IMG/VR virus record: IMGVR_UViG_3300049440_000308
Coordinates: 62,309-126,308 of that record
From: a virus
Reading direction: 5' to 3' (one strand)
Length of the DNA: 64,000 nucleotides
Both the position numbers and the translations under genes were made by a program. The notes beneath the pieces were generated by a model. It did no database searches, had not been told where the DNA came from, and worked only from the letters and a program-made list of their open reading frames with translations. Shown here one piece after another: positions 15,789-31,220 of this stretch (within the stretch, counting starts at the first letter, position 1; each line of letters opens with the position of its first letter).

Positions 15789-16135
15789 GCCGGGCGAAGC
15801 CGCTCGACTACGCAGGCCGCTGCGCCCGGTACCTGCCCCGGCGCGGCATCACCTACGACCCTGAGCGCCTCTCGGTTGACCGGCTGACCTCGCGCCAGCG
15901 CAGGCGGGCGCTCAAGAAGGAACGCCACGCCCCGGCCTTCCCGCTGCTGCCTGACATTGACGGCGACCCGTACGACGGTGATGACGAGGACCCCCGCTGC
16001 ACTCACTGCGACGGTGATGTCTGGGTTGAGTGCGACGATCCGATTCAGTGCTGTGACCCTCGCTGTGACGGTGAACTGCACCCCGACCCGGCATGCGGCG
16101 GCACCGGCCTCTACAAGCACCAGGTGATCTTCTAG
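15785..16135 (+). CDS. Cys-rich (DnaJ-zinc-finger-like) protein
   Basis: CTHCDG...CCDPRC...ACGGTG. Confidence 0.55.
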   Translation: MSRAKPLDYAGRCARYLPRRGITYDPERLSVDRLTSRQRRRALKKERHAPAFPLLPDIDGDPYDGDDEDPRCTHCDGDVWVECDDPIQCCDPRCDGELHPDPACGGTGLYKHQVIF

Positions 16136-16143
16136 GAGGAACC

Positions 16144-19100
16144 GTGACCGTTACCACCTCGTACGACTGGGACGACCTGTGCGCCGTCATCGCCCTGACC
16201 GGGGACGCGAACCACATTCACATACCAGGCTCTCCGATGGAGTGGCGGCATGATTACGTCCCGATCGCCGAGTCTGCGGCCAGGTCCCACGGTCACGGGA
16301 AGGTACCGAAGGGCTGGAAGGCGCCGTCAGGGGGAGCCCGCGCGGGCAAGGCGGTAACGGCGGAGACTGGCAGCAGCGCGAAGGCACCGTCGGGCGGCCT
16401 GCGTGGCCTTGCCGCCAAGCACGGCATGAGGACCATGACGGGGAACGGCGAGACGCTGATCCTGCCAAAGGGCGGGGGGATCGTCTCCCCGGTGCTGCGC
16501 GTCCGGGACGGACACTACAGGACGGTGAACGGCGAGGATGTCGACCCCGGCGAGGTTGAGGCGTACCTGTCCGCGTACAGCCAGCACCCGAAGGCGCTGT
16601 CGGGTGGGCTGCTAGACCACATTCGCGGCGGCCCTGCGTCGCCCCCCGACGCCGACGCCGAGTGGAAGCGGACCATGGACGCGATGGCTGCCAGGGAGAA
16701 GGCGGCCGGCATAGCGAACGCGCGGGGCATGGACCGCATGCAGGCGCACCACGACGCGGCCCGGCAGCACCTGCGGGAGTCGGCCGGCATCACCATCCCG
16801 TTCGCGCAGGAGTTCAGCCTCGGGCTGGGGCACAGCGATTACAGCCAAGCGGAGAACCACCTGCTGAACGGCCGGTACGGGGAAGCCGCAGCCGCGCTGG
16901 ACCGGGCGCTCGCCGCTGAGCGCTCACGCCCCGGCCTGATGTCGAAGGCGCAGACGGCCCGGCTGGCCAAGCTGGAGAAGTTCCGCGACCAGGTGACGCA
17001 GGCCGCCGCGCACCCGAAGGCGACGCTTCCCGCCCTGGCCAAGCTGAACGGCACGCGGCAGCCGGACGGGTCGTTCACCGCCCTCGACCAGAACGGCGCC
17101 GAGCACACGGTCAAGCTGGAAGGCACACCGAAGTCGGGCACGGTCACCGTGTCGACGGCCAAGGGCACCCGGTCCATGCCGGCACTCGGCGACCCGACCT
17201 ATGCCGCCCGGATCCTGGCGGGGAACCTGGCGGGCACCAACCCGGTGTACGGGGCCAGCAAGCGAGGTAAGCCGGTCATGCAGGGTGACACCGTGGTCGT
17301 CCCGTACAAGTCCGCCGGGAAGTGGTCGGAGACGGACGTGAAGGGCGGCAAGGGCGTGGTGTACGGGGCCACCGGAGGTGACCGGGTGCTGGTCGCCACC
17401 GGGGACAGCCGGGGTTACATCTCCGCGTCGCCCGCCGAGGTGACGCACGCTCACGCGGCCGGGACGGTACAGGCCGCCAACCCCGCCCTCGCTGCTGTCG
17501 AGTTGTCTTCCCGTACCCGTAAGGATGGTCCTGTGTCAGTTACGGCGGTTAAACCGAAGACAGGGCAGGGGATGGCCCGCTCCGGGCTCGCGCCCGGTTT
17601 CAGTCCGGTTGCCCGGGGGGCCGCGCCGGCGGGCCAGCGGCAGGCACCGGCCAGTCTAGCCAAGGCCCCGCCGTCCCGTCGCCCCAAGGTGACTCCGCTG
17701 TCCCCGATGCGCCGTGATACCGCGAAGTCGATGCGTAAGCTTGCCGCTCACGTGCAGGGCACTCATCCCGACATGACGGTCCACGAGCACCTGCGGGACG
17801 CGGCGAGGACCCTGGAGAAAGGCAACGAGGAAGGGGCGCAACGGCACCTGCGGGCGGCGATGTTCGCCCTCACCCCCCAGTCACTCATGCGGAACGGGCT
17901 GCACACCGACGAGCACCATCAGGCGGCACGGGAGGCGATGCACGGCGTTCACCGGCACATGCTGCTGACGAAGGACATCGCGGACGTGGCGGCAAGGAAC
18001 CAGCAGGCCCTTGCGAGGACCGGGACGGGGGACGACACGGCAGCCCCGCCGAGAGCAGACCCGAACGCCGGGTACGGGCCGGGTGCCCTCGCCCAGAAGC
18101 CGGCAGCACGGCAGCCCCCGGGAGACCAGGCGCTCAACGCGCCGGCCAAGGCGGACGGCGGGGGGTCTGATCCTGCGGTGGCGGACCCGAACGGGCCGCA
18201 GCGACCAGGAAGCAAGCAGTTCAGCACCTGGGACGAGGTGTCCGCCGGGGTGCTCGACATGGCCGGGCCGGGCGGGTTCCTGCATGGCTGGAAGCCGAGC
18301 GGGCCGACAGCGGCACTCCACGACAAGGCGGCGAGGCTGCACACGCAGGCAGCAGAGAAGGCGAAGGACCCGGCAGTGAAGGCAAGGCACCTGCGGAGGG
18401 CGAGGGTCCACGCGCAGGTCGCCCGGAAGCTCCGGTCACTGACCCCGCCGTCTCCTGCTGCTCCCGCCGGGGGCGCGCTGCTGGCGTACGACTGGGATGA
18501 CGTGCTGAACGTCGCCGAGTTCTCCGCGAGGACGGCCATGCTGGAGGCAACCCCGGCACCGATCGGCAAGCCGGGAGGGCCGGGACTGTACGGGATCGCA
18601 GGGCTCGGCCACAGCAGTTATTTTGAGCAGGTCAGGAACGGCCTGATGAAGCGGGGCGTCCCTGAGGGCAGGGCGCACGCGATGACGTGGGGCATCCTGC
18701 GACGGTGGGCGGCCGGAGGCGGAAAAGTGCATCCGGAGGTGAGGGCTGCGGCCGCGAAGGCGCTCGCCGAGGAGGCAGCGAAGAGAGCGCAGGCGAAAGC
18801 ACAGGGGCACGCGGTCACGGGAGATGACATCAGCGCGGTGATCACGCTGACCGGGGACGCGCGGCACCATCACATCCCGGGCTCTCCGATGGAGTACGAG
18901 CACGGTTACAACCCTCTGACCCCGGCTGCGGCGAAGTCGCACTTCGGTAAGGTCCCGAAGGGCTGGAGTCCCTCATCGGGCGGCGGCGGCAAGGCTTCCG
19001 GCCCGGCGCACCTCAAGTTCACCGACGCGTCTGGCCGGGTGTCGTATCACACCATCCACGACCCGGAGACGGCCGGCAAGATCCGCGACCAGGCGAAGCA

Positions 19101-20391
19101 GCGGGGCATGACCGCCGAGGAAGGCGGCGCGGCCCGTGACCCCGGTATCGAGAAGATGCCGAAGAACGCCCGCGCCCTGCACGAGGCGGCGCGGCAGGCG
19201 GGCTGGAACGTCTCCCACTACCCCGGTGAGGCGACCGACGTGAAGTTCGATGCCGCCGGGCACCCCATCCCCGGCACCGCCACTCCGCTGCACGCGGTGT
19301 CCGCGCACAACCCGGTCACGGGGCAGACGGTCCGCCAGTCCTGGAACGGCAACAAGGTCAGCGCGCACCCGCAGGGCGAGTCGCTGTCGGCGTCGATTGC
19401 CGCGGTCAAGGCTCACCCGGTCACGCCGGAGCAACTGAAGGCACTCACCACGCCCGCAGGGAAGCAGGCCAGGATCGCCAGCCGGATCGGTGGTGACGCC
19501 ACGGAGTTCAGCGCCCGCGGCCTGGGGACTAACGCGCAGAAAGTCGGGTACCTGATGGGCCAGGCTGCGGACGCGCTCAGCGCCGGAGACAAGAAGACCG
19601 CGATCAGCCACCTCCTGGCGGCGCAGTCAGCCAGCGTCACCGGCCACGAGGTTTTCGCCAAGGGAACCGGGTACGCGCAGGCCGTTATCGCCAAGCACCT
19701 GAAGTCGCTCGGCGCCGACGGGAACCCGCAGTTCGCCTACTCCTGGCGCGATCTTGACACCGTGATCGAGATGGCCGCTGCCCAGCCCGCCGCTGGCGGG
19801 GGTCCTCCTCCCGCGCCTCCTGCTGCTTCCCAGTCCGGGGGGTCCGGGTCTCCTCAGGCGAGGGTCCCGTCGGGTCAGGCGGGAGGCGGGCAGTTCGGCT
19901 CCGGCGGCGGGCAGGCGGCCGCACCCAAGCCGGACGCCCACCAGCAGCACGTCGCCCACCTGGCTCACCTCGCGCAGGTCGCCACCCAGAAGGCCGCCCT
20001 GCTAGCTACCGCCGCCGATGACCGGAACAAGGCCGCGGCGCTAGTCCAGCAGCGGGCCGTCCTGGTGAAGGCACTGGCGAGCGCCGGGGGGAAGGTGAGC
20101 GCCGGGCAGGCGGGGGCGAAGACCGCGACGACGGCGAAGACCAAGACAACCGCGCCCGCCACGACTGGCACCGCCGCGCCCGCAGCCGCGAGCACCGCCA
20201 CTGCCGCCGCCAAGGCCCCGGCTAAGGCCGCCAGCACCACCGCTAAGGCCGCCACGGCGGCACCCGGGACCGCCGCGGCGAAGGCAACCGCGGCTCAGCT
20301 CACCACCCAGATCGGCGCCCTCAGCACCCAGATCAGCCAGCTCCTCGCGGCAGCTAACCAGGCGACGGCGCAGGCCACCGCGCTGAAGTGA
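16144..20391 (+). CDS. large modular head-associated polyprotein (about 1415 aa)
   Basis: AGGAGGA SD before GTG 16144; duplicated HIPGSPME module; repeated W-D-D/E..V-I/L-E/D-M/F/L linkers. Confidence 0.8.
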   Translation: MTVTTSYDWDDLCAVIALTGDANHIHIPGSPMEWRHDYVPIAESAARSHGHGKVPKGWKAPSGGARAGKAVTAETGSSAKAPSGGLRGLAAKHGMRTMTGNGETLILPKGGGIVSPVLRVRDGHYRTVNGEDVDPGEVEAYLSAYSQHPKALSGGLLDHIRGGPASPPDADAEWKRTMDAMAAREKAAGIANARGMDRMQAHHDAARQHLRESAGITIPFAQEFSLGLGHSDYSQAENHLLNGRYGEAAAALDRALAAERSRPGLMSKAQTARLAKLEKFRDQVTQAAAHPKATLPALAKLNGTRQPDGSFTALDQNGAEHTVKLEGTPKSGTVTVSTAKGTRSMPALGDPTYAARILAGNLAGTNPVYGASKRGKPVMQGDTVVVPYKSAGKWSETDVKGGKGVVYGATGGDRVLVATGDSRGYISASPAEVTHAHAAGTVQAANPALAAVELSSRTRKDGPVSVTAVKPKTGQGMARSGLAPGFSPVARGAAPAGQRQAPASLAKAPPSRRPKVTPLSPMRRDTAKSMRKLAAHVQGTHPDMTVHEHLRDAARTLEKGNEEGAQRHLRAAMFALTPQSLMRNGLHTDEHHQAAREAMHGVHRHMLLTKDIADVAARNQQALARTGTGDDTAAPPRADPNAGYGPGALAQKPAARQPPGDQALNAPAKADGGGSDPAVADPNGPQRPGSKQFSTWDEVSAGVLDMAGPGGFLHGWKPSGPTAALHDKAARLHTQAAEKAKDPAVKARHLRRARVHAQVARKLRSLTPPSPAAPAGGALLAYDWDDVLNVAEFSARTAMLEATPAPIGKPGGPGLYGIAGLGHSSYFEQVRNGLMKRGVPEGRAHAMTWGILRRWAAGGGKVHPEVRAAAAKALAEEAAKRAQAKAQGHAVTGDDISAVITLTGDARHHHIPGSPMEYEHGYNPLTPAAAKSHFGKVPKGWSPSSGGGGKASGPAHLKFTDASGRVSYHTIHDPETAGKIRDQAKQRGMTAEEGGAARDPGIEKMPKNARALHEAARQAGWNVSHYPGEATDVKFDAAGHPIPGTATPLHAVSAHNPVTGQTVRQSWNGNKVSAHPQGESLSASIAAVKAHPVTPEQLKALTTPAGKQARIASRIGGDATEFSARGLGTNAQKVGYLMGQAADALSAGDKKTAISHLLAAQSASVTGHEVFAKGTGYAQAVIAKHLKSLGADGNPQFAYSWRDLDTVIEMAAAQPAAGGGPPPAPPAASQSGGSGSPQARVPSGQAGGGQFGSGGGQAAAPKPDAHQQHVAHLAHLAQVATQKAALLATAADDRNKAAALVQQRAVLVKALASAGGKVSAGQAGAKTATTAKTKTTAPATTGTAAPAAASTATAAAKAPAKAASTTAKAATAAPGTAAAKATAAQLTTQIGALSTQISQLLAAANQATAQATALK

Positions 20392-20410
20392 CCGCCGGTA
20401 TTCTCGGGTA

Positions 20411-20632
20411 ATGGCCGGAATTGAGGTAAACGACAGCGAGGGGCCGTACCCGTACGCCTGGATCAGGTTCCGCGACGACCCCGCCGCGCCGTTCGCGTCC
20501 ATGTTCGGCGACGGCAAGACGTTCACGCCGAACGTGGACCTGACCGACGAGGAAGAGGCGGAGCTGAAGGACCTGCGCGCCCGCTGGAAGGCGTGGCAGG
20601 ACAGGCTGCTGGCGGCGGCCGGGGCCGGCTGA
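20411..20632 (+). CDS. hypothetical protein
   Basis: GC3-rich ORF. Confidence 0.6.
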   Translation: MAGIEVNDSEGPYPYAWIRFRDDPAAPFASMFGDGKTFTPNVDLTDEEEAELKDLRARWKAWQDRLLAAAGAG

Positions 20633-20634
20633 CG

Positions 20635-21084
20635 ATGAGCCCCGAGGAGAAGGTCCGGGAGGCCAGGCTCCGGCGCGTCGCCAGCCGAAGAGGCTTGCGG
20701 CTGGTCAGGTCCCGCCGTCGCGATACCGGCGCGCTCACCTACGGGCGCTACTTCGTGGAGACGCAGGACGGGCAGGTTCCGGATGGCTACCAGACCGTCC
20801 GGGGGTTCACCCTTGACGAGGCAGAGGAACGGCTAGCGGCTGTTAGGGTGCGGCGCATGATCAACTCCATGGCTGAGCGCACCGACGCGGAGAAGCTGAG
20901 GTCCGCCGAGATCACGCTGGCGACGCTCCGGGAGCACGCCGAGCGGTCCGTGTCGCTGCCTGCCGATGTGCTCCGCAACGAGCATGCCCGCGGCTTCCAG
21001 AGCGCGATGCGGGACGTGCTGGCGATCCTTGACGCCCGCTGGCTGCCCGAGGGCGCCCCGGTCAGCCTCCCGGCGACGTCATGA
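20635..21084 (+). CDS. hypothetical protein
   Basis: EARLRRVASRRGLRLVRSRRRD...YGRY motif; ATGA coupling. Confidence 0.6.
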   Translation: MSPEEKVREARLRRVASRRGLRLVRSRRRDTGALTYGRYFVETQDGQVPDGYQTVRGFTLDEAEERLAAVRVRRMINSMAERTDAEKLRSAEITLATLREHAERSVSLPADVLRNEHARGFQSAMRDVLAILDARWLPEGAPVSLPATS

Positions 21085-21470
21085 GCGGCGAGATTGAACG
21101 GCGGGGCGGGCAGGCGCCGGACCGCCCCGCGGAGGGCACGGGCGGCGGGCGGCCGCGCGACCGCGCCTACCCTTCCGGGCGGCAGGCCGGGTCACTGGAC
21201 CCCGAGTGGGTCATGGTCGGCGTCGACGTTCCCGCCGGGAAGCGCCTGTACGCGTCCCGGGACCTGAAGGGCTCGGCGTTCGACCTCGCAGTCGACGCCT
21301 ACGGCAACGGGCAGGGCTGGCAACTCGGCACCATGATGCAGCGGATGCTGGTGATCACCAGGCCCACCTACACCGAGTGCCTCGCTGAGCTGATGACCAT
21401 CTGGAGGAACTGGGACGTCGCCGGGCGTGAACTGCCCGCCGCGACAGGGAACGGGAGGGCGGTCTCGTGA
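21081..21470 (+). CDS. hypothetical protein
   Basis: ATGA/GTGA overlaps. Confidence 0.6.
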   Translation: MSGEIERRGGQAPDRPAEGTGGGRPRDRAYPSGRQAGSLDPEWVMVGVDVPAGKRLYASRDLKGSAFDLAVDAYGNGQGWQLGTMMQRMLVITRPTYTECLAELMTIWRNWDVAGRELPAATGNGRAVS

Positions 21471-21688
21471 GCGCCGATGACATCCGCATCGCCTGGAACG
21501 TGGTGTCGGAGCGGCTAACCGCGGTCCACCCGGATGACGGCACGTACGCGGTCAAGGAGATCGCGTTCACGGAGACCGGCCGCACGGAACTTCCCGGCGG
21601 CCCCCGGCTGATCCTCGGCCCGACACTCGGAGAGATCGCCCTCATGTTCGGGGAACCGCCCGCCGTGACAGGAGGGCCGCTGCCGTGA
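21467..21688 (+). CDS. hypothetical protein
   Basis: GTGA overlaps. Confidence 0.55.
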   Translation: MSADDIRIAWNVVSERLTAVHPDDGTYAVKEIAFTETGRTELPGGPRLILGPTLGEIALMFGEPPAVTGGPLP

Positions 21689-21975
21689 GCGCGATGAGGC
21701 CCGTCTACGTCGACGGCCCGCTCGAAGGCGGGGACCTCAGCATGCCGGACGACCTGGCCGTGGTCTACGACCTGCCCGGCGCGAGGGCCCCTGAACCGCA
21801 GGGCACCTACCGGTTCTTCCCGTACCGGTTCGCGGGGGGAGGCAAGGTGGTCACGGTCACGATCGGGTACTGCGGTGCCGAGCCGGACGCGGAGGCGGTC
21901 GCCCGGGCGCTGCTGAAGCCTGAGATATTCGAGCGCGCGGAGGTATGCGACATGACCGGGGACCTGGCGCGATGA
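21685..21975 (+). CDS. hypothetical protein
   Basis: VYVDGPLEG motif; overlaps. Confidence 0.6.
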   Translation: MSAMRPVYVDGPLEGGDLSMPDDLAVVYDLPGARAPEPQGTYRFFPYRFAGGGKVVTVTIGYCGAEPDAEAVARALLKPEIFERAEVCDMTGDLAR

Positions 21976-23057
21976 GCATCACCGGGCAGGCCCTTGACCT
22001 AGCATTCAACCCGCTAGAGCCTCGCGACAAAGAGGGCCGGTTCTTCCACGGCACCACCGACAAGTACCAGCCTGGCGATGTCATCGACCCCGCTAAGCCG
22101 CACCGTGCCAACTTCGACCCGGAGCACAGCGAGCCGAAGTCGGTTTACTTCGCGGCGAAGGCAAGGCAGGCGATGCACTACGCGGAACGGGACAAGGGCG
22201 GCCTGGGTGACCCTCACGTCTACGAGGTCGAGCCGACAGGCGAGCACTGGCCCATCGCCCCGGGCGTCACCCAGTACCAGACGAAACACCCGCTGCGGGT
22301 CATCAGGGAGGTAGACCCCGCTACCGAGATGGCGGCCGCGACGATCACCGGGCAGGCGCTTGACCTTGCACCCGCCGGCATCACCGCCCAGGCTGCCGGA
22401 AGCGCCCCGGACGTCACCCTCGCCAGGGGGTACGAGCTGAATCCCCGTTCCGGCATGATCTCCCTTGACCTGCCGCCGGGAACCATCCCGGCAGTACCGG
22501 GCGGGGTGACCGACTTTCACGTGACAGTTGTTTACCTCGGCCCGGACGTGGATGATGAGGCGCTCGCGGAGGCGTGCGAGAGGGCACAGGCCGCCGCGAC
22601 GGCAATACCCGGGCCGCTACTCGGGACGGTCGGCGGGATCGGCACCTTCCCCCCGTCCGGCGGCAGCGACGGGAAGGTCCCCGCATGGGCAGGGGTGCTG
22701 CTGCCCGGCGCGGAGCGGCTCCGCTCAGCCCTGGAAGACCTCTCGGCGAGCGAGCACAAGAACTGGCATCCGCATGTCACCCTCGCGTACGTGGACCCCA
22801 GCGAGGCCCTGCCCCCTCCGGTGCCCGCAACGCAGGTCATGTTCGCTTACCTGTCAGTGCACCGGGGCGACGATGAGGTGAGGCGGTTCCCGCTCGGCGG
22901 AGGGACGGAACTAGCCGGGGAGACGATCAGCGGGCAGGCGGGCCCGGCATCCCCGGGTACAGGGGACGGGGGAGCAGTCAGCGGGCAGATGGCGGGCACC
23001 CCGCTAGCGGAGCGGCTTGACCTGGCAGGCCGCCCAAAAGCATCAGCGGCCAGCTAG
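21972..23057 (+). CDS. Arr-like ADP-ribosyltransferase domain plus 2H phosphoesterase domain protein
   Basis: FFHGT, SVYF, VYEVEPTG and PLRVIREV (Arr/ART fold); FHVTVVY and PHVTLAY (two HxT motifs). Confidence 0.8.
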   Translation: MSITGQALDLAFNPLEPRDKEGRFFHGTTDKYQPGDVIDPAKPHRANFDPEHSEPKSVYFAAKARQAMHYAERDKGGLGDPHVYEVEPTGEHWPIAPGVTQYQTKHPLRVIREVDPATEMAAATITGQALDLAPAGITAQAAGSAPDVTLARGYELNPRSGMISLDLPPGTIPAVPGGVTDFHVTVVYLGPDVDDEALAEACERAQAAATAIPGPLLGTVGGIGTFPPSGGSDGKVPAWAGVLLPGAERLRSALEDLSASEHKNWHPHVTLAYVDPSEALPPPVPATQVMFAYLSVHRGDDEVRRFPLGGGTELAGETISGQAGPASPGTGDGGAVSGQMAGTPLAERLDLAGRPKASAAS

Positions 23058-23061
23058 CCGC
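23033..23061 (+). other. programmed -1 frameshift signal C_CCA_AAA plus hairpin
   Basis: Heptamer 23033-23039; GCGGC/GCCGC stem 23046-23061; ISGQ repeats continue in the -1 frame. Confidence 0.75.
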
Positions 23062-24841
23062 GGGCACGATAAGCGGCCAGTTCGACATGGCCGGCGGATG
23101 GGCGGCCGCGTGGCTGCATGAGCGGCGGGACTCCCGCGGCAAGTGGACGCGGAACCCCGGCCCTGCGGACGCTACCGGGGCCGATGACGCCGCGCAGCGG
23201 GGCGGCAGGAAGCCGGCCACGAGCAAGGACATCATCGGCGAGTCGCGCAAGTCCAAGGACGACCTAGTCCGCAAGCACCTCAAGGCGGCCGCCGCGCACC
23301 TGGACAGCGGCGATCACGCCGCGGCGGCGGATGAACTGAAGCAGGCCTCGAACATGGCCGGGATGCACGGCGACACCGAGACTAGCGACCGCCTGTTCGA
23401 GATGGGCCAGTCGCTGTCCGAGGAGTCCCGCACCAATGCCGCCGTGGCAGGCTTCGCCGGGAAAGCCGCCGTCGTCGTCCCGGGGCTGCTCGGCGGCGGA
23501 CGGTCGGACTGGAACGGCAAGGTCGACCTGTTCAACGCGAAGGACAACCCGGCCGTCGCCGCGTACATGGGCTGGGACGGGACCATGGGGTTCCAGCGGG
23601 AGCTCGCCGGGCAGCTCGCCGGGGACACCGGGGGCGGGAAGGTGACCGACCCGGTTACCGCCTTCACGCCGCACATCGACGTCCTGCACGAGCTGATCCA
23701 CAGCACCGTCCCCGCCGGCGGGGAGGCACCGGAGTGGAAGGCCCTCCCGCAAGGGCACAAGGCGGCGCTGTCCGCGTTCGCCGCCATGGACAAGGACAAC
23801 CCGAGCGGCGGGGCGTACCCGACGGAGCACACCCTCGCCGGCGCCCGCGAGCGGGACGGCGGCATCACGCAGGCGACGGTGGATGACCTCACCGGGCGCG
23901 GCCTCCTCACCCGCTCGTCAACCACGAGCAGCACCTGGAACCCGACGACAGGGCAGTCCACCCCGTCCGTGCACTCATGGCGGCTGGCCGCCAAGGGGAG
24001 CGCCATCCTCCCCGTCGCGCCGCAAACCCACGACATGCACAAGGACGCCTACCGTGACCCGCGCAACGCCGCAATCGAGGAGGGATTCACCGAGCTCGGC
24101 ACCGTGCACCACGCGCCGGAGTTCCTGACGCGCATGGGCTTCGGGAGCCAGGAGACCGGCATGATCTCCGTCACCTCCGCCGGGAAGCCGCGGGAGGAGT
24201 TCGACAAGGCGGACCTGGCGGCCCGGAAAGACGAGATCGCGAAGCTCGTCGCGGAGGCGAACGAGACGACCAGCTTCTCCGCCGAGCTTCACCTGCGGGG
24301 GGCCGCGAGGGAGATGGGCAAGGCGTCACCTGACGTCGGCTCCGTGATCGACCAGTTGTCCAGGGCGCAGTTCGAGGCGAAGGGCGAGGCCCTCAAGGCG
24401 GAGATCTGGGAGGCGATGAGCGCGCTGAACCTCGCGCCGAGCACGCTTAAGCGGGCCACTGTGACCGAGTACGCGAAGCGGCTGCGCGAGCCGGACAGGA
24501 TCGCCAGCGGCAACGCCTGGGGTCATTACGCCTGGCAGACCGCCGCCGCGCAGGCGTGGGTGCTCGCCGCGGCGAAGGCCGAAGGAAAGGGGAAGACGTC
24601 ACCGCGGGTCCGCGCCCTCGCCGACGAGATCAACCGGGAAGGCGTCGGCGGGAAGGTGCCCGCGATGGCCAGGCAGGTGATCCGGGCGGCCGGGGCGGAC
24701 CCGGACAAGTTCCAGGGGGCACCGCTCGCGGCACTGGAGACCCGGATCCGGAGCCAGTGGGCGCAGGACCCGTCCGGGGCGGGGTCCTCGCCGTGGGCGT
24801 CGGCCATGGCGGTAGTGAGACAATACGACCGTGAGCACTGA
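23033..24841 (+). CDS. -1 frame C-terminal extension with HExxH metallopeptidase-like domain
   Basis: VLHELIH at 23687 and IEEGFTE at 24077; no clear SD before ATG 23087. Confidence 0.7.
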   Translation, partial: PKSISGQLAAGTISGQFDMAGGWAAAWLHERRDSRGKWTRNPGPADATGADDAAQRGGRKPATSKDIIGESRKSKDDLVRKHLKAAAAHLDSGDHAAAADELKQASNMAGMHGDTETSDRLFEMGQSLSEESRTNAAVAGFAGKAAVVVPGLLGGGRSDWNGKVDLFNAKDNPAVAAYMGWDGTMGFQRELAGQLAGDTGGGKVTDPVTAFTPHIDVLHELIHSTVPAGGEAPEWKALPQGHKAALSAFAAMDKDNPSGGAYPTEHTLAGARERDGGITQATVDDLTGRGLLTRSSTTSSTWNPTTGQSTPSVHSWRLAAKGSAILPVAPQTHDMHKDAYRDPRNAAIEEGFTELGTVHHAPEFLTRMGFGSQETGMISVTSAGKPREEFDKADLAARKDEIAKLVAEANETTSFSAELHLRGAAREMGKASPDVGSVIDQLSRAQFEAKGEALKAEIWEAMSALNLAPSTLKRATVTEYAKRLREPDRIASGNAWGHYAWQTAAAQAWVLAAAKAEGKGKTSPRVRALADEINREGVGGKVPAMARQVIRAAGADPDKFQGAPLAALETRIRSQWAQDPSGAGSSPWASAMAVVRQYDREH

Positions 24842-25037
24842 CCTGACCCCGGAGGGGAAGCGCGCCTACGAGATCCTGCGGCAGGCGCAGGATGACCCCG
24901 TGAACCGGGCGGAAGCCGCGCAGGCGCAGGTGAGCGACCTGGCCCGGCCGCTGCTCGGCAACCCGGGGAAGGCGCAGGCGCTACGCGAGGTGCAGGACGC
25001 GGGCACGATGCTGGCCCGGCTGGCGGGCGCCCTGTAG
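24831..25037 (+). CDS. small helical protein
   Basis: Overlaps the upstream stop; GC3-rich. Confidence 0.55.
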   Translation: MSTDLTPEGKRAYEILRQAQDDPVNRAEAAQAQVSDLARPLLGNPGKAQALREVQDAGTMLARLAGAL

Positions 25038-25039
25038 CG

Positions 25040-25393
25040 TCACCGGCTGGCCGCCCGCAGCGCTTCCCGTGCTTCCCGGGCCCGCCTGTGGCACAGTGCC
25101 ATGGCGGAGTCCCGTACCTTCTCCGGGACGTCCGCGCCGCCGTCGATCCCGGCGACGTCGCTCTTCCACACTGACGACGCCCAGGTTTTCCCGTCTGGGT
25201 CCACGTCCGCCCAGATGTCGACTCGCAGGCCCTGGACCTCATGGCCGTCGTAGCGGACGTGCGCGCTTCCGGGGCGGCACCCGCCGGGGCGGAAGTCGGC
25301 CTGCCCGCCGTCAGCGAACCCGACCGTGATCACGGGGCCGTCCTGCAGTCCGTGCGGGACGTAAGCGCCGTCCGGGTACGTGGCACTAGTCAT
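25040..25393 (-). CDS. hypothetical protein
   Basis: ATG overlaps the stop of 25386-25637. Confidence 0.6.
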   Translation of the reverse strand: MTSATYPDGAYVPHGLQDGPVITVGFADGGQADFRPGGCRPGSAHVRYDGHEVQGLRVDIWADVDPDGKTWASSVWKSDVAGIDGGADVPEKVRDSAMALCHRRAREAREALRAASR

Positions 25394-25637
25394 CGTCTTC
25401 CCCTGCCTCGAACTCGTCGGCGAACCGCTGCGCGAAGTCCCGGAACCCCTTCTTCGTCGCCGGCCGCTTGAAGCCGAACCGCTCCGGGTTGCGGACCTCG
25501 GCGGGGAAGCCGTGCCGGAACGCCAGCGGGTTAGCCAGTCCCTCGCCCCACTGGACTTCCATGCGGGCACCGTCTCCGCCTGTCCACGAGTAGCGGTAGG
25601 TGGCGAGTGCGGACTCGTTGGCTAGCTTGACGGTCAT
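25386..25637 (-). CDS. hypothetical protein
   Basis: GGAAG upstream; natural composition. Confidence 0.6.
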   Translation of the reverse strand: MTVKLANESALATYRYSWTGGDGARMEVQWGEGLANPLAFRHGFPAEVRNPERFGFKRPATKKGFRDFAQRFADEFEAGEDDD

Positions 25638-25730
25638 CTCGCCACTTCCCTCCGGGGGAACCTCTCCCCGTCGCCGCCAGTGTATACACCTACTGATATA
25701 GATACAACGGCCGGTGTACGCTTTGCAGTT

Positions 25731-25949
25731 ATGAGTGAATCGGAGATCGAGCGCGAGCTAACCGAGGCGCAGGCCGACGTGATCAGGGTCCGCGAGGCCA
25801 GCAGCCGGCGCCGCAGGGCCGTCATGGCCGCACTCGCGGCAGATCCCCCCTGGACTAAGTACAAGATCGCGGCCGTGCTCGGCGTCGGAGGCCCGACCGT
25901 AGACGCGATCGTCAAGGCTGCGCAGCGCGAGGCGGGCACCGCGGGCTAA
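25731..25949 (+). CDS. small HTH DNA-binding protein
   Basis: WTKYKIAAVLGVGGPTVDAIV; divergent from 25637 across an AT-rich gap. Confidence 0.65.
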   Translation: MSESEIERELTEAQADVIRVREASSRRRRAVMAALAADPPWTKYKIAAVLGVGGPTVDAIVKAAQREAGTAG

Positions 25950-26102
25950 GTTACCCCCGGGGCCGTCCCTTCGGCCTGCACGGGCGCGAACCGGGGTCAT
26001 GGCCATGGCCTTGCAGTCCGTGCCGCCGGTTCCGGAGGTCCTAGCCGGCTCGCCAGCGCTAGCTCACCGACCCGCTTGCGCGCCCCGGGGGTACCGTCAA
26101 GC

Positions 26103-26327
26103 CTACCCGCGGCGGTTCGCGGGCGCGCTCGCCTCAAGCAGCGGCTGCCATCCGAGCCAGTCGACACCCTGGTAGCAGTAGGCGCACGGGGCGCACATCC
26201 CGCCGATGTCCGTAGCCTTCTCGGCCTTCTGGTGGCAGGCACCGGACACGGCGTGAGACTCCGGGCACGAGCAGGGGCGGCCGAGCAGGATGTCAAGGGC
26301 CGCGATCGCCTGCGCGGGATCGGTCAT
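26103..26327 (-). CDS. small Cys-rich protein
   Basis: CSC, CHQ and CAPCAYC motifs. Confidence 0.5.
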   Translation of the reverse strand: MTDPAQAIAALDILLGRPCSCPESHAVSGACHQKAEKATDIGGMCAPCAYCYQGVDWLGWQPLLEASAPANRRG

Positions 26328-26331
26328 GCCG

Positions 26332-26976
26332 TTACACCCGCCGCAGGGTGAACCCGGCGTCGGCGAGGCCGCCGATCAGGTCATCGCGGGTGAACGTGAC
26401 CGCGTTGCCGTCGCGGGTGCCGACCTCGACCCGGAACGCCGCCGGGTCGACGGGGATCATGATGAACTCGCAGTTCGCCCACCGGCAGACGTCGGCCGCC
26501 TTCGGCCCGTACTGGACGTACCAGGCGTGGTCGGTGGTCCGCTCGCAGGCTGCCGGGTCGAACGGGCCGTCGCCGGGATGGCTGTAAGGGCCGCGGAGGA
26601 ACTCCTCGTAGGCGGCGCGCTCCTGCTCGATCTCGGCCGCCCATTCCTCGTCGGTCTGCCACCACTCGGTCCGGTGGGCGACCAGGATGCCCATCGCCTT
26701 GATGCGGTCGTCCTCGTCGCGGCGGTAGAAGGTGCTGGTCTCGATCACGAGGTCGCCGGGCTGCGGGTCTTTCATCCGCTCCCACATCCGCTTGACGACG
26801 GGTGCCTGGTTGCCGACGAGCACCGCGTCGCGGAGACACTTCGCCGTGCCGCCCATCATCATCCTGCGGGGAATGGCCGCTTCTTCGAGGGACAGCAGGT
26901 CGTCGTCGCGGTCGGTGCCGGTGATGCCCTCGCGTGGCTGGGGGTAGGTTTGCGCGCCGTTGTTCATGCCGTCCAT
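26332..26976 (-). CDS. hypothetical protein
   Basis: GC3-rich, 214 codons; GATAAT immediately upstream. Confidence 0.65.
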   Translation of the reverse strand: MDGMNNGAQTYPQPREGITGTDRDDDLLSLEEAAIPRRMMMGGTAKCLRDAVLVGNQAPVVKRMWERMKDPQPGDLVIETSTFYRRDEDDRIKAMGILVAHRTEWWQTDEEWAAEIEQERAAYEEFLRGPYSHPGDGPFDPAACERTTDHAWYVQYGPKAADVCRWANCEFIMIPVDPAAFRVEVGTRDGNAVTFTRDDLIGGLADAGFTLRRV

Positions 26977-27075
26977 TATCCGGCACGGGCGCGTGAGAGG
27001 CCGGGCACGTGAAAGCGGCGCGCTAGCAGTGCCCGGCCCCCCTGTTCGTAGAGCGTAACGGGAAGACGCGACCGC

Positions 27076-27123
27076 CTGCACGTGCATCTGCACTGTGCAT
27101 CAGCGCGTGCATGAGGCTATGAT
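27076..27123 (+). promoter_or_regulatory. putative late promoter with TGCACGTGCATCTGCAC motif and TATGAT -10
   Basis: Motif 27077-27093; TATGAT 27118-27123, spacing like the site at 3980. Confidence 0.6.
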
Positions 27124-27162
27124 GCGGAATCAAAGGCGGCGGCGCGCTGGGGGAAGGAACCA

Positions 27163-28134
27163 GTGCCGGCGTCCCTTGACCTTGCCGCGCCGAAGCTCGG
27201 CAGCGGTGCCCGGTTCAAGAAGCTGTCCTCAACGCTCGCCGCCCGCGGTGCCAGCAACCCGGACGCCCTCGCCGCCTACATCGGCCGCAAGAAGTTCGGC
27301 GCCAAGGGCATGGGCCGCCTGTCCGCCGGCAAGTCCCTCGCGAACCCTGACCTCGGCATCTACCTGTCCGAGACAACGAAGGACAGCCAGGGCTTCACCC
27401 TCACGTGCCCCGAGTGCGGCCATGTTGCCCCCTCCGGCGACTTCGGCGCCTCCGGCACGAGCACCGACTCCAGGCCCGCCGACCTGCGTACTCCCGCCCC
27501 CAGCACAGGCGGAGTGCGTGACGGGGTGCCCCTCACCGTGAAGACCGGCGCCGCCCACGCCCTGTCCAGCACCCGCGCGGCGGTTGAGCTTGCCACCGGA
27601 ACCGTCCGCCGCCCCATCCACGGCCCCATGGACGTCCTGGTAAAGCGGGAACCGGATGGTACTGCCCTGCTGAGGCACCGCAACGGGGGAGCGGAGATCG
27701 CCCGCCTGCGCCGCACCGACGAGGGCAAGTGGGTCGCGTCCGTCAACGGCAGGGACCTCGCCCCCCGTGACCACCAGCGGACCGCCCTCATGGAAGCGGT
27801 CGGCCAGTGGAACGGGGCCGTCACCGCGGCCACCAGGCGGCAGGAAGCACCGTTGCAGCCGCCCCCGCAGCAGACGGAGCTGATGGCCGAGTACGGCATC
27901 CCCGCGATGCGCTCCGCCGGGTTCGCCACCCCCACCGCCGGGGTGGGCGACGGGCCGCGCGTGACCACCTCGGCCGCGGCGGGTGACAGTGACGGCGACA
28001 AGGACGCTCCCGGCGGGCTGAGCCCGAAGGCACTGGCGATCTACAAGAAGCTCCTCGCCAAGGGCTTCCCCGCCGCGCGGGCCCTCGCGTTCGCAAAGAA
28101 CAGCCAGAAGTTCGGCAAGCCGGCGGCCGCCTGA
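27163..28134 (+). CDS. modular head-associated protein
   Basis: SLDLAAPKLGSGARF...AAYIGRKKFG module, Zn-ribbon CPECG and C-terminal basic module. Confidence 0.75.
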   Translation: MPASLDLAAPKLGSGARFKKLSSTLAARGASNPDALAAYIGRKKFGAKGMGRLSAGKSLANPDLGIYLSETTKDSQGFTLTCPECGHVAPSGDFGASGTSTDSRPADLRTPAPSTGGVRDGVPLTVKTGAAHALSSTRAAVELATGTVRRPIHGPMDVLVKREPDGTALLRHRNGGAEIARLRRTDEGKWVASVNGRDLAPRDHQRTALMEAVGQWNGAVTAATRRQEAPLQPPPQQTELMAEYGIPAMRSAGFATPTAGVGDGPRVTTSAAAGDSDGDKDAPGGLSPKALAIYKKLLAKGFPAARALAFAKNSQKFGKPAAA

Positions 28135-28406
28135 TGGCCACGCTCACGCACACCTTCACGCGGGTCCACCTCACCGTCACGCCTGCCAACCCGTTCCTCG
28201 CCTGCCGGACGTGCCGTAAGCGCGTTGAGGCGTTCCACGACGACGAGTGCGGCTGCGACGAGAGCGGCGGCCCGCTGCTCCTGATGCCGTGCTTCCACCG
28301 CAGCGACTACGACGACCTGTGCCCGTCATGGGGCCCGGTCGACGGCTGCCGGTGCCTGGAGCACCTCGGCCACGTCCCGCACCCGGCAGAACTGCCGACC
28401 GCCTGA
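28134..28406 (+). CDS. Cys-rich hypothetical protein
   Basis: TGATG overlaps at both ends; CRTC, CGC and CRC. Confidence 0.6.
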   Translation: MATLTHTFTRVHLTVTPANPFLACRTCRKRVEAFHDDECGCDESGGPLLLMPCFHRSDYDDLCPSWGPVDGCRCLEHLGHVPHPAELPTA

Positions 28407-29758
28407 TGACCGCCGCGGTCCTCACCCCGTTCACCGCCGCGCAGGCGGTGGAGCTCGGCAACCGCCTGTGGCGCAAGAAGGTCCTGCCCATCGGCGACGT
28501 CGAATATAAGGGCCGCACCCTGCACTTCACCAGGGATTACCTCGGCCGCCTCGCCACGGCGTTCCAGAACCGCGCCTACGACCAGGTGCCGTTCCAGCTA
28601 GCCGACAAGGACAACAGCCACAGCAACGACCCGGAGCGGACCCGCGGCGAGGTGACCGCGATGGAGCTCGGCGACGACGGCCTTTACATCACCGCGCAGC
28701 TCACCGAGGACGGGGAGAAGGTCCTGGCGGCCAACCCGAAGCTCGGCGTCAGCGCCCGGATCGTGGAGGGCTACCAGCGGTCCGACGGCAAGTTCTTCGG
28801 CGAGGCCGTCCAGCACGTCCTCGGCACCCTCGACCCGAGGATTCCCGGGCTGGGCGCATGGCAGGCGATCGAGGCGGCGTCACCGGAGCCGGAGAGCGTC
28901 CTTGACCTGTCCGCGGAGTCGTTCACGGACCTCGCAGTCAAGCCCGGGGACAAGGCGTCACGGAAGGCCGCGAAGGCCGAGCGGAAGGCCGCCGCGAAGG
29001 CAGCGGAACAGCAGACAGAACCCGCTGGCAGTCCCGCCGGCGCCGACCCGGAAGGGGGCGCCGACATGGCGGACCTCACCCAAGAGCAGCGGGCACGGCT
29101 GGACAAGCTCCTCGCCCTGCCCGACGACGTACTTGACCGCCTCGCCGCAGGCGGAACCGTGGTCACCCCCGCCGAACTGGAGGCCCTCACCGCCCCCGGC
29201 AGCGAGGACGAGGACGACGACGCGGACGGCATCGCGGAGGAGATCGCCGCCATGTCGGACGAGGACCTCGCCGCGCTCGAGGCCGAGTTCAACGCCGAGA
29301 TCGCGGACACGGGCACCCCCGCGCCCGCCCGTGAGAGGGAGCCCGTGGCAGCTGGAATGAGCGCCGAAGCCCAGTTCGCCATCGACCTGGCGAACGCGAA
29401 GGCCGACGAGACCGCCCGCGAGCTCGCCGTCGTCACCGCGCGCCTCCGCGAGGAGGACTTCCAGGGGGAGAAGCGGCGCCTCGCCGACTCCGGGGTCCCC
29501 CCCTACATCACCGAGCTGGCCCGGCCGCTCCTCGAAGGCGCAGGCCACGCGGTGGAACTGAGCAACGGCAAGACAGTCGACGCGGGGGCGATCATGCGCC
29601 GGGTCCTGTCCGAGTACGCCCGCCAGGCCCGCCTCCTCGACCTCGGCGCCGAGCTCGGCAGCCCGATGGACGAGCCGGAGGACGCCGCCTACGAGCAGCA
29701 GGCCACCTCCCGGGAGGCCGTCGTGGCGAAGTTCAAGAGCATGACGGGCCTGCGGTAA
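28406..29758 (+). CDS. Mu-like prohead protease fused to scaffold
   Basis: N-terminal LWRKKVLPIG...SHSNDP...GLY...GVSARI...TLDPRIPGL, then acidic coiled-coil scaffold. Confidence 0.8.
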   Translation: MTAAVLTPFTAAQAVELGNRLWRKKVLPIGDVEYKGRTLHFTRDYLGRLATAFQNRAYDQVPFQLADKDNSHSNDPERTRGEVTAMELGDDGLYITAQLTEDGEKVLAANPKLGVSARIVEGYQRSDGKFFGEAVQHVLGTLDPRIPGLGAWQAIEAASPEPESVLDLSAESFTDLAVKPGDKASRKAAKAERKAAAKAAEQQTEPAGSPAGADPEGGADMADLTQEQRARLDKLLALPDDVLDRLAAGGTVVTPAELEALTAPGSEDEDDDADGIAEEIAAMSDEDLAALEAEFNAEIADTGTPAPAREREPVAAGMSAEAQFAIDLANAKADETARELAVVTARLREEDFQGEKRRLADSGVPPYITELARPLLEGAGHAVELSNGKTVDAGAIMRRVLSEYARQARLLDLGAELGSPMDEPEDAAYEQQATSREAVVAKFKSMTGLR

Positions 29759-29798
29759 TGGCCCGCCCTAGCAACCGAGACCAGGAGGGGGCCCGCAC

Positions 29799-30296
29799 GT
29801 GACCGCGGTCCTAGCGCACTACACCAAAGGCCCGGCCAGCTACCAGGTCTCCACCCTCATCTACGGCGGCCAGTGGGTCATGCCGACCACCCTGACCGCC
29901 GGAACCACCGACCTGACCGTGAAGGTCGCCACGAGCGCGACCGTGAACGCCCTCGGGGTCGCGGGCACTGACGCGAACGTGGTCGCCGCCCAGACGGGCG
30001 CCGTCAACAGCTACGGGCAGCCGCTGATCGACATCTCGGTGCTGACCGACTACGCGAGCGTCTACGCGGGCGGCTGGGACATCTGGTGCTGGTACGTGGG
30101 GGCGGCGATCCTCGGCCAGCGGCTGATCATCGGCGCGACCGGCGGCGCCGTCACCGGGGCCGGCGCCGGGCCTGCCGCGGACCAGGTGGTGGGCGTCTGC
30201 TCCCACCCGGGCGGCGTCTCAACCGGGATGCTCACCCAGCAGATCGGGGGCTCGGGAAGCGCCGTCTACTTCCTGGGCCGGGCCCGGGTCCTTTAG
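29799..30296 (+). CDS. capsid decoration/cement protein
   Basis: Position between scaffold and capsid; Ala/Gly-rich beta-tulip-like composition; GGAGG SD. Confidence 0.7.
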   Translation: MTAVLAHYTKGPASYQVSTLIYGGQWVMPTTLTAGTTDLTVKVATSATVNALGVAGTDANVVAAQTGAVNSYGQPLIDISVLTDYASVYAGGWDIWCWYVGAAILGQRLIIGATGGAVTGAGAGPAADQVVGVCSHPGGVSTGMLTQQIGGSGSAVYFLGRARVL

Positions 30297-30308: not shown

Positions 30309-31220
30309 ATGCCCACTGGCGCAAGAGGTTACAGCGACTCACCGCGGCTTACCGTCTCCGAGCTGCTGAAGGACCCGCTGGTCATCCCGGCCTTGATCCT
30401 GGATATCACCGCCAACGAGTTCATCATGGACAGCGTGTTGCGGATGGGCGGGGCGGCCCCGTCCGGCGCGGTCCGCTACTCGGAGAGCACCCCGCTGTAC
30501 GCGGACGACTTCCCAGAGATCCGGGCCGAGTTCGCCGAGGTGCCCGTCGTGCCGACGTCCATCGGCGTGCCCCGCGTCGTGTTCTCCCACGAGCGGGCCA
30601 TGGCGATCATGGTCAGCGACGAGATGCGGCGCCGTCAGGCCATCGATCCTGTAACCAGGCAGCTACTCCAAGTCAAAAACACGATGGTCTATAGCTGGAA
30701 TACGGCATTTTATTCGGCTGTCGTGGCCAATGCCAGTATCCAGACGCTCGCAGTAGCGAATGCGTGGGCCTCAGCTTCGGCGACGATCCGCAGCGACATC
30801 GCCCAGGCCGTGTACCTGGTCGAGAACAGCAACATCGTCAGCCCGTCCGGCGTCACCCAGTGGCTCGGCTTCGAGGCCGACACGATGATCATCAACCACG
30901 GGACGAAGAACACGCTCCTGCAGTCGAGCACGTTCGCCGCGCCCTACATCGGCGACATCGCCAGCGAGAACCTGCAGTACACGGGCGTGCTGCCGAACAA
31001 GGTGTTCAACCTTGACGTGCTGGTCTCGCGTCAGGTGCCCGCGGGCAACGCGATCATCATGCAGCGGCACCGGGCCGGCTTCTACGCCGATGAACTGCCC
31101 TTCATCGCCGGGCCGCTTTATCGGAGCGAGGAAAGAAAGGTCTGGAGGAGCGACACCCAGAGGTCATCGGCAATCGGGCTTGACCAGCCGTTGGCCGTTG
31201 CCCTCCTGAGCGGCGTCTAG
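30309..31220 (+). CDS. major capsid protein (HK97 fold)
   Basis: AGGAGG SD; RAEFAEVP, ADTMIINHG and LVSRQVPAGNAIIM; size and position. Confidence 0.85.
   Translation: MPTGARGYSDSPRLTVSELLKDPLVIPALILDITANEFIMDSVLRMGGAAPSGAVRYSESTPLYADDFPEIRAEFAEVPVVPTSIGVPRVVFSHERAMAIMVSDEMRRRQAIDPVTRQLLQVKNTMVYSWNTAFYSAVVANASIQTLAVANAWASASATIRSDIAQAVYLVENSNIVSPSGVTQWLGFEADTMIINHGTKNTLLQSSTFAAPYIGDIASENLQYTGVLPNKVFNLDVLVSRQVPAGNAIIMQRHRAGFYADELPFIAGPLYRSEERKVWRSDTQRSSAIGLDQPLAVALLSGV

Follow-up and report, generated by a model that had tools for sequence, protein, structure and literature searches.

ADP-ribosyltransferases (ARTs), 2H phosphoesterases and zincin peptidases are typical parts of the polyvalent proteins of phages, which are predicted to be packaged (Iyer et al. 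2017, PMC5512222; Iyer et al. 2022, PMC9503650). The zincin peptidases of these proteins have variable inserts between their two catalytic helices (PMC5512222). In addition, MuF polymorphic toxins have been described in temperate phages (Jamet et al. 2017, PMC5576092), and MuF-VIP2 fusions have been described in Microbacterium phages (PMC7302621). Here, a locus that contains such enzyme modules is described from a stretch of 64,000 nucleotides, further called the window, which covers bases 62309-126308 of the 131,159-bp IMG/VR virus record IMGVR_UViG_3300049440_000308 (rated complete by CheckV) and has a GC content of approximately 70%. The locus consists of the open reading frame ORF1, encoding an Arr-like ART and a 2H phosphoesterase, ORF2, encoding an HExxH peptidase module in another frame, and a small gene for a partner protein of 68 amino acids (aa). 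It is probably, with a probability of about 0.6, the head-module cargo cassette of an uncultured 131-kb actinophage from soil and belongs to the polyvalent protein kind. All positions given are those of the window, and all features of the cassette lie on its plus strand.

The locus shares several properties with the described polyvalent proteins (PMC5512222; PMC9503650). Several unrelated enzyme domains are found on one polypeptide in a neighborhood of virion genes, the set comprises ART and 2H domains together with an HExxH...E peptidase whose insert between the two catalytic helices varies, and relatives are fused to portal or MuF proteins. In this phage, two or more unrelated effector domains stand in one chain beside virion genes, namely the ART and 2H domains in ORF1, joined by the peptidase via a frameshift. 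Unlike the described proteins, the peptidase has no Pfam match, a conserved -1 frameshift divides the chain into a short and a long form, and a conserved 68-aa partner is present. The ART is also different, as it belongs to the Arr family, whereas Alt/VIP2 and N4-ART are named as MuF-fused or polyvalent in PMC9503650; no mention of "Arr-like" was found in PMC5512222. The MuF toxins (PMC5576092) and MuF-VIP2 fusions (PMC7302621) resemble the locus in having a head-associated carrier, exchangeable enzyme modules and a small coupled gene after them. In contrast to these systems, no MuF match is found in ORF1 or ORF2, MuF being a separate, split gene approximately 8 kb upstream; the chain is conserved towards its C-terminus and carries its variable modules on the N-terminal side, and the small partner is conserved and not polymorphic. 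The overall theme is thus already known from comparative genomics (PMC5512222, PMC9503650, PMC7302621, PMC5576092). As far as could be found, these papers do not cover four elements: the conserved -1 frameshift inside such a protein, the Arr-family ART in this setting, short recurring motifs (tags) in the chains, and the peptidase family with its winged-helix insert and its dedicated small partner.

Position in the head block and fusions to head proteins

Around the cassette, PHROG and Pfam searches identified the major capsid gene at 30309-31220, a Mu-type portal gene at 7977-9587 and the large terminase gene at 5723-7153. A MuF homolog is present at approximately 13061-13459 and 14318-14539; it is interrupted by an insert of approximately 860 bp and is 63% identical to the Phage_Mu_F gene of the related contig L003. 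The capsid protein is approximately 35% identical to capsid proteins of Gordonia, Mycobacterium and Streptomyces phages. Because of these surrounding genes and the identity of the capsid protein to those of actinophages, the cassette is placed within the head-assembly block of an uncultured actinophage. The Mu-type portal and MuF are located on one side of the cassette, and a scaffold-like gene and the major capsid gene on the other. The gene order of L003 matches that of the window: portal, MuF, 2H, frameshift, peptidase and 68-aa ORF. No nucleotide match to the cassette was found in 50,697 isolated phage genomes, and a tblastn search of the same genomes gave no match to ORF2.

In relatives, the peptidase module is directly fused to head proteins. 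A fusion of Portal_Mu, Abhydrolase_8, the HExxH module and the partner is present in L013, Portal_Mu is fused to the HExxH module in L041, and Phage_Mu_F is combined with NUDIX, a kinase-like domain and the HExxH module in L021. Further fusions of the peptidase module involve DUF7178 or ParB_N. The L013 fusion (L013:24-9092) is a single ORF of 3023 aa that contains, in this order, the Mu-type portal, an alpha/beta hydrolase, the peptidase module, the in-frame 68-aa partner, a further tag and an R-S-E-type module resembling an ART. Upstream of the peptidase and its partner, the modules are swapped between loci; sequence comparison presents the peptidase module and the 68-aa ORF as the conserved cassette. 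Portal and MuF are the two classical anchors of the head interior, and cis fusion to them gives the strongest argument at present that the module and the parts attached to it would reside in the capsid. The preliminary description of this DNA, made from the sequence alone, had proposed that the enzymes are virion-packaged cargo. The location among head genes and the portal and MuF fusions of relatives agree with this, and because of them packaging of the cassette is supported, not proven.

The Arr-like ADP-ribosyltransferase and the 2H phosphoesterase of ORF1

ORF1 (21972-23057; ORF list and Pfam) encodes a short product of 361 aa with the order tag, Arr-like ART, tag, 2H phosphoesterase and further tags. 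This protein is identical to the protein-database entry P0034. The start at ATG 21972, already assumed in the preliminary description, and the stop codon of the preceding gene overlap as ATGA. The Arr-family domain is located at 22041-22313 and is recognized by Pfam Arr-ms (PF12120) with an E-value of 1.4e-9 and 38.5 bits against a cut-off of 25, covering residues 33-123 of the ORF when it is read from 21945. Immediately 5' of the FFHGT...SVYF...VYEVEPTG blocks lies FNPLEPRDKEGRF. A search of the Protein Data Bank (PDB) with whole ORF1 by phmmer gave nothing useful. A profile of six such ART domains matched 9iba (ARR-2) at 3.4e-13 and 2hw2 (Arr-ms) at 5.2e-11. As in these Arr structures, the FxHGT, xVYF and VEPTG blocks and a C-terminal PLRV block are kept; unlike them, the phage domain is embedded in a head polyprotein, and nothing points to a rifamycin substrate. 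The NCBIfam model rifampin_ARR (NF033144) gives 31.7 bits, below its equivalog cut-off of 130. On sequence grounds, the ART of ORF1 has the Arr-family fold and is not a rifampin-Arr equivalent. The catalytic motif of Arr is H-Y-D (His19, Tyr49 and Asp84 of M. smegmatis Arr; 10.1101/2025.02.20.639278), and the His (FFHGT) and Tyr (SVYF) of ORF1 are aligned with it. The Arr-like nature of this domain, first suggested from its motifs, is therefore confirmed by the motifs themselves, the Pfam score above cut-off and the profile matches to Arr.

The second enzyme of ORF1 is a LigT-like 2H phosphoesterase at 22419-22931, identified using Pfam, AlphaFold and Foldseek. The Pfam family 2_5_RNA_ligase2/LigT (PF13563) covers both HxT motifs with 31.9 bits against a cut-off of 27. 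These motifs, FHVTVVY and HPHVTLAY, are conserved in the homologs (39 sequences): H268 and T270 are invariant, and H183 and T185 are nearly so. When the 2H part was searched by itself against PDB sequences with phmmer, no useful match was obtained. Its AlphaFold model has a pLDDT of 94-98, and Foldseek matched it to drCPDase of D. radiodurans (5h7e, 3e-7), followed by TT0787 of T. thermophilus (1iuh) and E. coli LigT (5ldm; probability 1.0). Within the viral structure library BFVD, the model scores best against 2H modules from large proteins of Gordonia, Microbacterium, Mycobacterium and Rhodococcus phages. The 2H domain predicted from its two HxT motifs thus stands, and the comparison with the phage enzyme Acb1 made at the same time needs to be qualified: Acb1 of phage PaBG ranks only 33rd in BFVD (E 1.5e-4, TM-score of 0.42 by target) and is absent among the best 50 PDB matches. 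The ORF1 domain is closest to LigT/CPDase of bacteria and to 2H modules from large head proteins of actinophages. It shares the two HxT motifs and the 2H fold with the LigT/ThpR-type cyclic phosphodiesterases and Acb1, and differs from them in being a module of a head polyprotein.

Close copies of the 2H module, with 70-83% identity, are present in approximately 90 metagenome proteins with differing N-terminal partners, including Arr, VIP2-type ART, NUDIX, cupin, alpha/beta hydrolase and HNH domains. Isolated phages have weak matches only, to gene 18 of Arthrobacter Laroyevirus. In Arthrobacter phage Edmundo (L074), this gene adjoins MuF and encodes a distant 2H homolog; its labels conflict across sister genomes, where it is called RNA ligase, aldolase class I or capsid maturation protease.

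These enzymes could also be late-expressed cytoplasmic proteins that are never packaged, acting for example in RNA-end repair or in an NAD/ADP-ribose pathway encoded by a late operon. In the RNA-repair form of this explanation, the 2H enzyme would open 2',3'-cyclic phosphates and the Arr/KptA-like ART would handle the 2'-phosphate. Both forms are considered unlikely. The nearest relatives of the 2H domain, LigT and CPDase, fit such a role, and RNA repair is known to combine a 2H enzyme with an ART of the KptA type (PMC9503650). The 2H module is often accompanied by domains of the NAD/ADP-ribose network (Arr, VIP2-type ART and NUDIX), and the phage described here has no direct portal or MuF fusion. 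However, no RNA ligase or kinase is linked to the locus, hydrolase, cupin and HNH domains also occur as 2H partners, and the viral structures that match best are 2H modules contained in large head proteins of actinophages. A cytoplasmic role also fits poorly with relatives in which the peptidase module is fused in cis to Portal_Mu and Phage_Mu_F, and with the conserved synteny between portal/MuF and the capsid gene.

The -1 frameshift that joins ORF1 to ORF2

In ORF1, the 2H domain is followed by a linker (22935-23032) with ISGQ, VSGQ and RLDLAG tags that leads to the heptamer C_CCA_AAA (23033-23039, given in the ORF1 frame), a -1 slippery site. ORF1 uses frame 0 and ORF2 frame 2. Read in frame 0, the codons CGC CCA AAA form an X_XXY_YYZ heptamer six codons before the ORF1 stop, and the two frames overlap by 12 codons. 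The -1 frame continues from 23039 to 24841 (600 aa) and includes the annotated ORF2 (23087-24841). Frame 2 is open from 23021 and contains two further ISGQ tags upstream of the ORF2 ATG, which resemble the four in ORF1.

The window shares the heptamer and the two-frame layout with L003, L043 and L044, and these four contigs come from different samples. In all four, the 0-frame stop lies 5-8 codons past the heptamer and the -1 continuation is the same; their flanks have diverged, and the downstream proteins of the three relatives are only approximately 53% identical to that of the window. In L059 and L005, the junction is fused in frame, and Arr and HExxH modules are found on a single ORF in P0026 (998 aa) and L037 (1358 aa). 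The -1 frame of the relatives has no start codon with a ribosome-binding site (Shine-Dalgarno) before the conserved tag, and the ORF2 ATG at 23087 is not conserved in relatives and has no ribosome-binding site. Taken together, the conserved heptamer and layout, the in-frame and single-ORF relatives, and the lack of a usable ORF2 start indicate that the frame change is a conserved programmed -1 frameshift, not an assembly error. The likely products are a short form of 361 aa and a long form of 956 aa. The frameshift in the preliminary description is hereby retained as a change of frame and extended: because a conserved programmed site joins ORF1 to ORF2, the three enzymes would partly be made as one 956-aa chain.

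It is very improbable that the frame change instead results from an assembly error or a decaying gene, with ORF1 and ORF2 being one plain gene or two unrelated genes. The run of four A residues in the slip site is a typical place for sequencing indels, and ORF2 does have an ATG at 23087 in this genome; against this stand the identical heptamer, 0-frame stop and -1 continuation in four contigs at approximately 53% downstream identity, and an ATG that is neither conserved nor preceded by a ribosome-binding site. In L005 (L005:876-1500), an HNH endonuclease gene lies directly 5' of the peptidase gene, with a relic of the 2H protein tail fused in frame; the heptamer is altered to CCCAGAA and 7 nucleotides are added. 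This junction looks like a natural repair of the frameshift after gene insertion, in a contig that has a split peptidase gene, so that assembly errors are possible.

The arrangement resembles that of the tail chaperones G/GT and of retroviral Gag-Pol, in which programmed -1 frameshifts keep short and long products at a fixed ratio and an X_XXY_YYZ heptamer also lies a few codons before the 0-frame stop. As in those systems, the long form adds an enzyme, here a peptidase, to the abundant short form, and some relatives are fused in frame. Unlike them, the site is located in a cargo or effector gene, and no significant stimulatory RNA structure was found.

The HExxH peptidase module of ORF2

The peptidase module starts with an N-terminal helical bundle at 23222-23488 (AlphaFold helices 46-134, pLDDT 85-97). 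The first part of the predicted zincin core (23489-23719) consists of a three-stranded sheet and the helix with HELIH (23687-23701), followed by a winged-helix insert (23720-24022) between the two catalytic helices. The second part of the core (24023-24166) is the helix with EEGFTELG (24077-24100), which carries the putative third zinc ligand, and a C-terminal helical domain (24206-24838) is the most widely conserved part of the module. EEGFTELG presumably resembles the xNEGF motif of M1 peptidases. The AlphaFold model of ORF2 (m8bd44e34d8e0) has a pLDDT of 81.8 and a pTM of 0.74 and shows the order helical bundle, three-stranded sheet, HExxH helix, insert (residues 212-312), Glu helix and helical C-terminal domain. 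The strands (146-149, 159-161 and 167-170) precede the HExxH helix (194-206), and the Glu helix spans residues 325-349.

The elements first noticed in ORF2, HERRDSRGKW, HELIH (residues 201-205) and EEG (residues 331-333), are all present. In an alignment of 26 homologs, H201, E202, H205, E331 and E332 are invariant, as are G333, T335, L337 and G338, in agreement with the zincin-like domain that had been proposed. The winged-helix-like segment is likewise corroborated, as residues 212-312 match the winged helices of MarR, Rio2 and TubR with Z 9-10 in VIA-align. The matches to winged helices and to M1 peptidases were seen only with this slower all-against-all aligner. From sequence and model together, ORF2 is predicted to be a gluzincin-type metallopeptidase module with a winged-helix insert. 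The insert is absent in P0012, P0019-21, P0025, P0028, P0031 and P0033, which fits the description of the zincins of polyvalent proteins (PMC5512222).

ORF2 has no match to Pfam, PHROG or NCBIfam models, and a profile of its homologs gave chance matches only against PDB sequences. Two leads from the ESM Atlas, Phage_min_cap2 (TM-score of 0.32) and Peptidase_M78 (score 0.78), were weak and were not used. Residues 313-584, and especially 455-580, match 152 proteins among cluster representatives at 50% identity; these proteins reach 2966 aa, and the matching region is usually close to the C-terminus. The peptidase family is undescribed, has 152 representative matches and is absent from all isolated phages searched.

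The 68-aa partner protein

The partner gene (24831-25037) has a GTG start and overlaps the end of ORF2 by 11 nucleotides, by which it is translationally coupled. A homolog follows the HExxH module in 31 of the 40 distinct loci that could be judged, including loci with a Zeta toxin or another ART as the upstream enzyme, and in L013 it is fused in frame behind the peptidase module. In the alignment of the partner (A5), T6, G9, A12, A38 and D56 are invariant at identities of 42-76%, and tblastn reaches homologs down to 33%. The predicted complex of peptidase and partner has an ipSAE of 0.81, compared with 0.01 for the best control; this mark is reached by 58 of 80 solved complexes and by 2 of 110 mismatched pairs. 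The partner has a pLDDT of at least 90 in the complex, and at least 91% of contacts agree between runs. The predicted interface includes the sheet edge (residues 151-163), residues 319-332 with E332, and parts of the C-terminal domain, and D56 of the partner contacts E332 of the peptidase.

The model supports binding of the 68-aa protein in the substrate cleft of the peptidase. As the partner tracks the module whatever the upstream enzyme, is fused to it in L013 and is predicted in its cleft, it appears to belong to the peptidase, not to the ART or the 2H enzyme. The most economical reading of the model is that it is a plug or regulator of the peptidase. The earlier suggestion that this ORF could be an inhibitor therefore becomes plausible for the peptidase, in whose cleft it is predicted, and is not upheld for the ART or 2H enzyme. 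Small protein or propeptide inhibitors are known to plug the clefts of metallopeptidases, as in the emfourin-protealysin operon and the "aspartate switch" of astacin. The partner resembles these in being a small co-transcribed protein predicted in the cleft, with an invariant Asp beside the zinc-ligand Glu; it differs from them in having no sequence relationship, and binding and inhibition are predictions here.

A polymorphic toxin-immunity system for bacterial competition, with the 68-aa ORF as immunity protein for the ART or another toxin, is the least probable explanation, since the resemblance of the swapped enzyme modules to polymorphic toxins, the small coupled ORF 3' of the enzymes and the known MuF toxins with immunity genes (PMC5576092) are outweighed by a small ORF that is conserved and tracks the peptidase module even behind a Zeta toxin, its fusion to the peptidase in L013 and predicted place in the peptidase cleft, variable modules that are N-terminal and not C-terminal, and a genome that is a 131-kb virus record estimated complete.

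Recurring tags at module boundaries

The N-terminal tag of ORF1 (21972-22043) consists of ITGQALDLA and FNPLEPRDKEGRF, and a second tag between the ART and 2H domains (22335-22394; translation and motif scan) contains ITGQALDLA and ITAQA. The motif I[ST]xQxLxL, followed by PxExRDxxG[RK][WF], heads ORF1 and, as the weaker copy GGWAAAWLHERRDSRGKW, also ORF2. The same motif heads modules in many related loci, with 3-4 copies inside multi-module relatives, one per module. A short core of the tag (hydrophobic, D, L/M, A/S) is 6.6 times denser in the head block, taken as the plus-strand genes in window 16000-29800, than in the rest of the genome (10 per 3979 aa vs. 12 per 31,534 aa). The core is found at module boundaries and also at the N-terminus of a 323-aa protein (27163-28134), and VLDLSAES lies at the domain boundary of a 503-aa gene (28247-29758), after its N-terminal domain. 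Protease sites, loading signals and recombination joints are candidate roles for the tags.

A proposed course of packaging and release

For the cargo cassette reading, we infer packaging and ejection, proteolytic processing and the substrates as follows. Most ribosomes would make the 361-aa protein with tag, ART, tag, 2H and further tags, and a fraction would slip back one base at C_CCA_AAA, resulting in the 956-aa chain with the peptidase module. The coupled 68-aa protein would bind the peptidase cleft and keep the peptidase in check. The proteins would be built into the prohead beside portal and MuF, and either the prohead protease or the peptidase module itself would cleave the chains at the repeated tags. 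The freed enzymes would exit with the DNA and act on NAD-dependent or nucleotide/RNA-end targets of the host at the very start of infection.

Several results weigh against this reading. The arguments for packaging are gene position and fusions, and the cassette of this phage is itself not fused to portal or MuF. The tags are putative cleavage sites only. Asp84 of the H-Y-D motif has no aligned equivalent in ORF1, where the loop is two residues shorter (EPTG-EHWP vs. EPEGAIEDDP) and a Glu lies near the unaligned position. The Arr part of the ORF1 AlphaFold model has a pLDDT below 50, because the alignment used for ORF1 was mostly 2H-only. Due to the unaligned Asp84 and this poor model, the Arr-like domain may be inactive or work differently. 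The match of the ORF2 core to the catalytic domains of LTA4H/M1 aminopeptidases in VIA-align is middling (Z 8.9, 195 residues, rmsd 4.3), and a Foldseek search with the complete ORF2 model gave no match at E < 1e-3 in the PDB or the AFDB clusters. The RNA 3' of the slip site has predicted folds of -23.6 to -34.9 kcal/mol over the four loci (-33.6 in the window), which are no better than those of shuffled sequences (z +0.3 to -1.3), and the four sequences contain one covarying pair only.

A more specific and tentative proposal is that the HExxH module and the 68-aa plug form a self-contained cargo-release device, which would be dosed by frameshifting like Gag-Pol, silenced by the plug, and would cut the chains at the ITGQxLDLA / PxExRDxxGRW tags. 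It is equally tentative that the cutting would take place inside the capsid or after ejection, and that the tags would double as capsid-loading signals.

Other genes of the head block

Upstream of the cassette, at 16093-20391, the head block encodes a 1432-aa protein without family match. This protein has an Ala/Thr-rich C-terminal tail, two copies of the motif TGDAxHxHIPGSPMEW/YxHxYxP and several YDWDD/YSWRD segments, and a 565-aa protein of L003 is homologous to its central portion. In L002, ITGQ tags are likewise followed by the HxHIPGxP motif. Directly after the 68-aa ORF, a leftward gene island (25040-27093) breaks the rightward head operon; it encodes proteins of 176, 83, 74 and 253 aa without family matches. 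The 503-aa gene at 28247-29758 is located directly 5' of the capsid gene, and in its product a globular domain at the N-terminus precedes an acidic region that resembles a coiled coil. This protein matches no family and may be a protease-scaffold fusion.

Implications for actinophage biology

To our knowledge, rifamycins are the only known substrates of the Arr family. The locus places an Arr-family ART in a phage head module, which hints at natural targets other than rifamycins. Enzymes that are delivered with the capsid act before any phage gene is expressed, and their loading, dosing and release are known for very few phages. The cassette offers a concrete and testable case, with a conserved frameshift that would set the ratio of chains with enzymes only to chains that also carry the peptidase, an undescribed peptidase family, a dedicated small partner predicted in the peptidase active site, and short tags at every module boundary. 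If the proposal of a cargo-release device is true, it would represent a general system for the loading and release of swappable enzymes across a lineage of uncultured actinophages.

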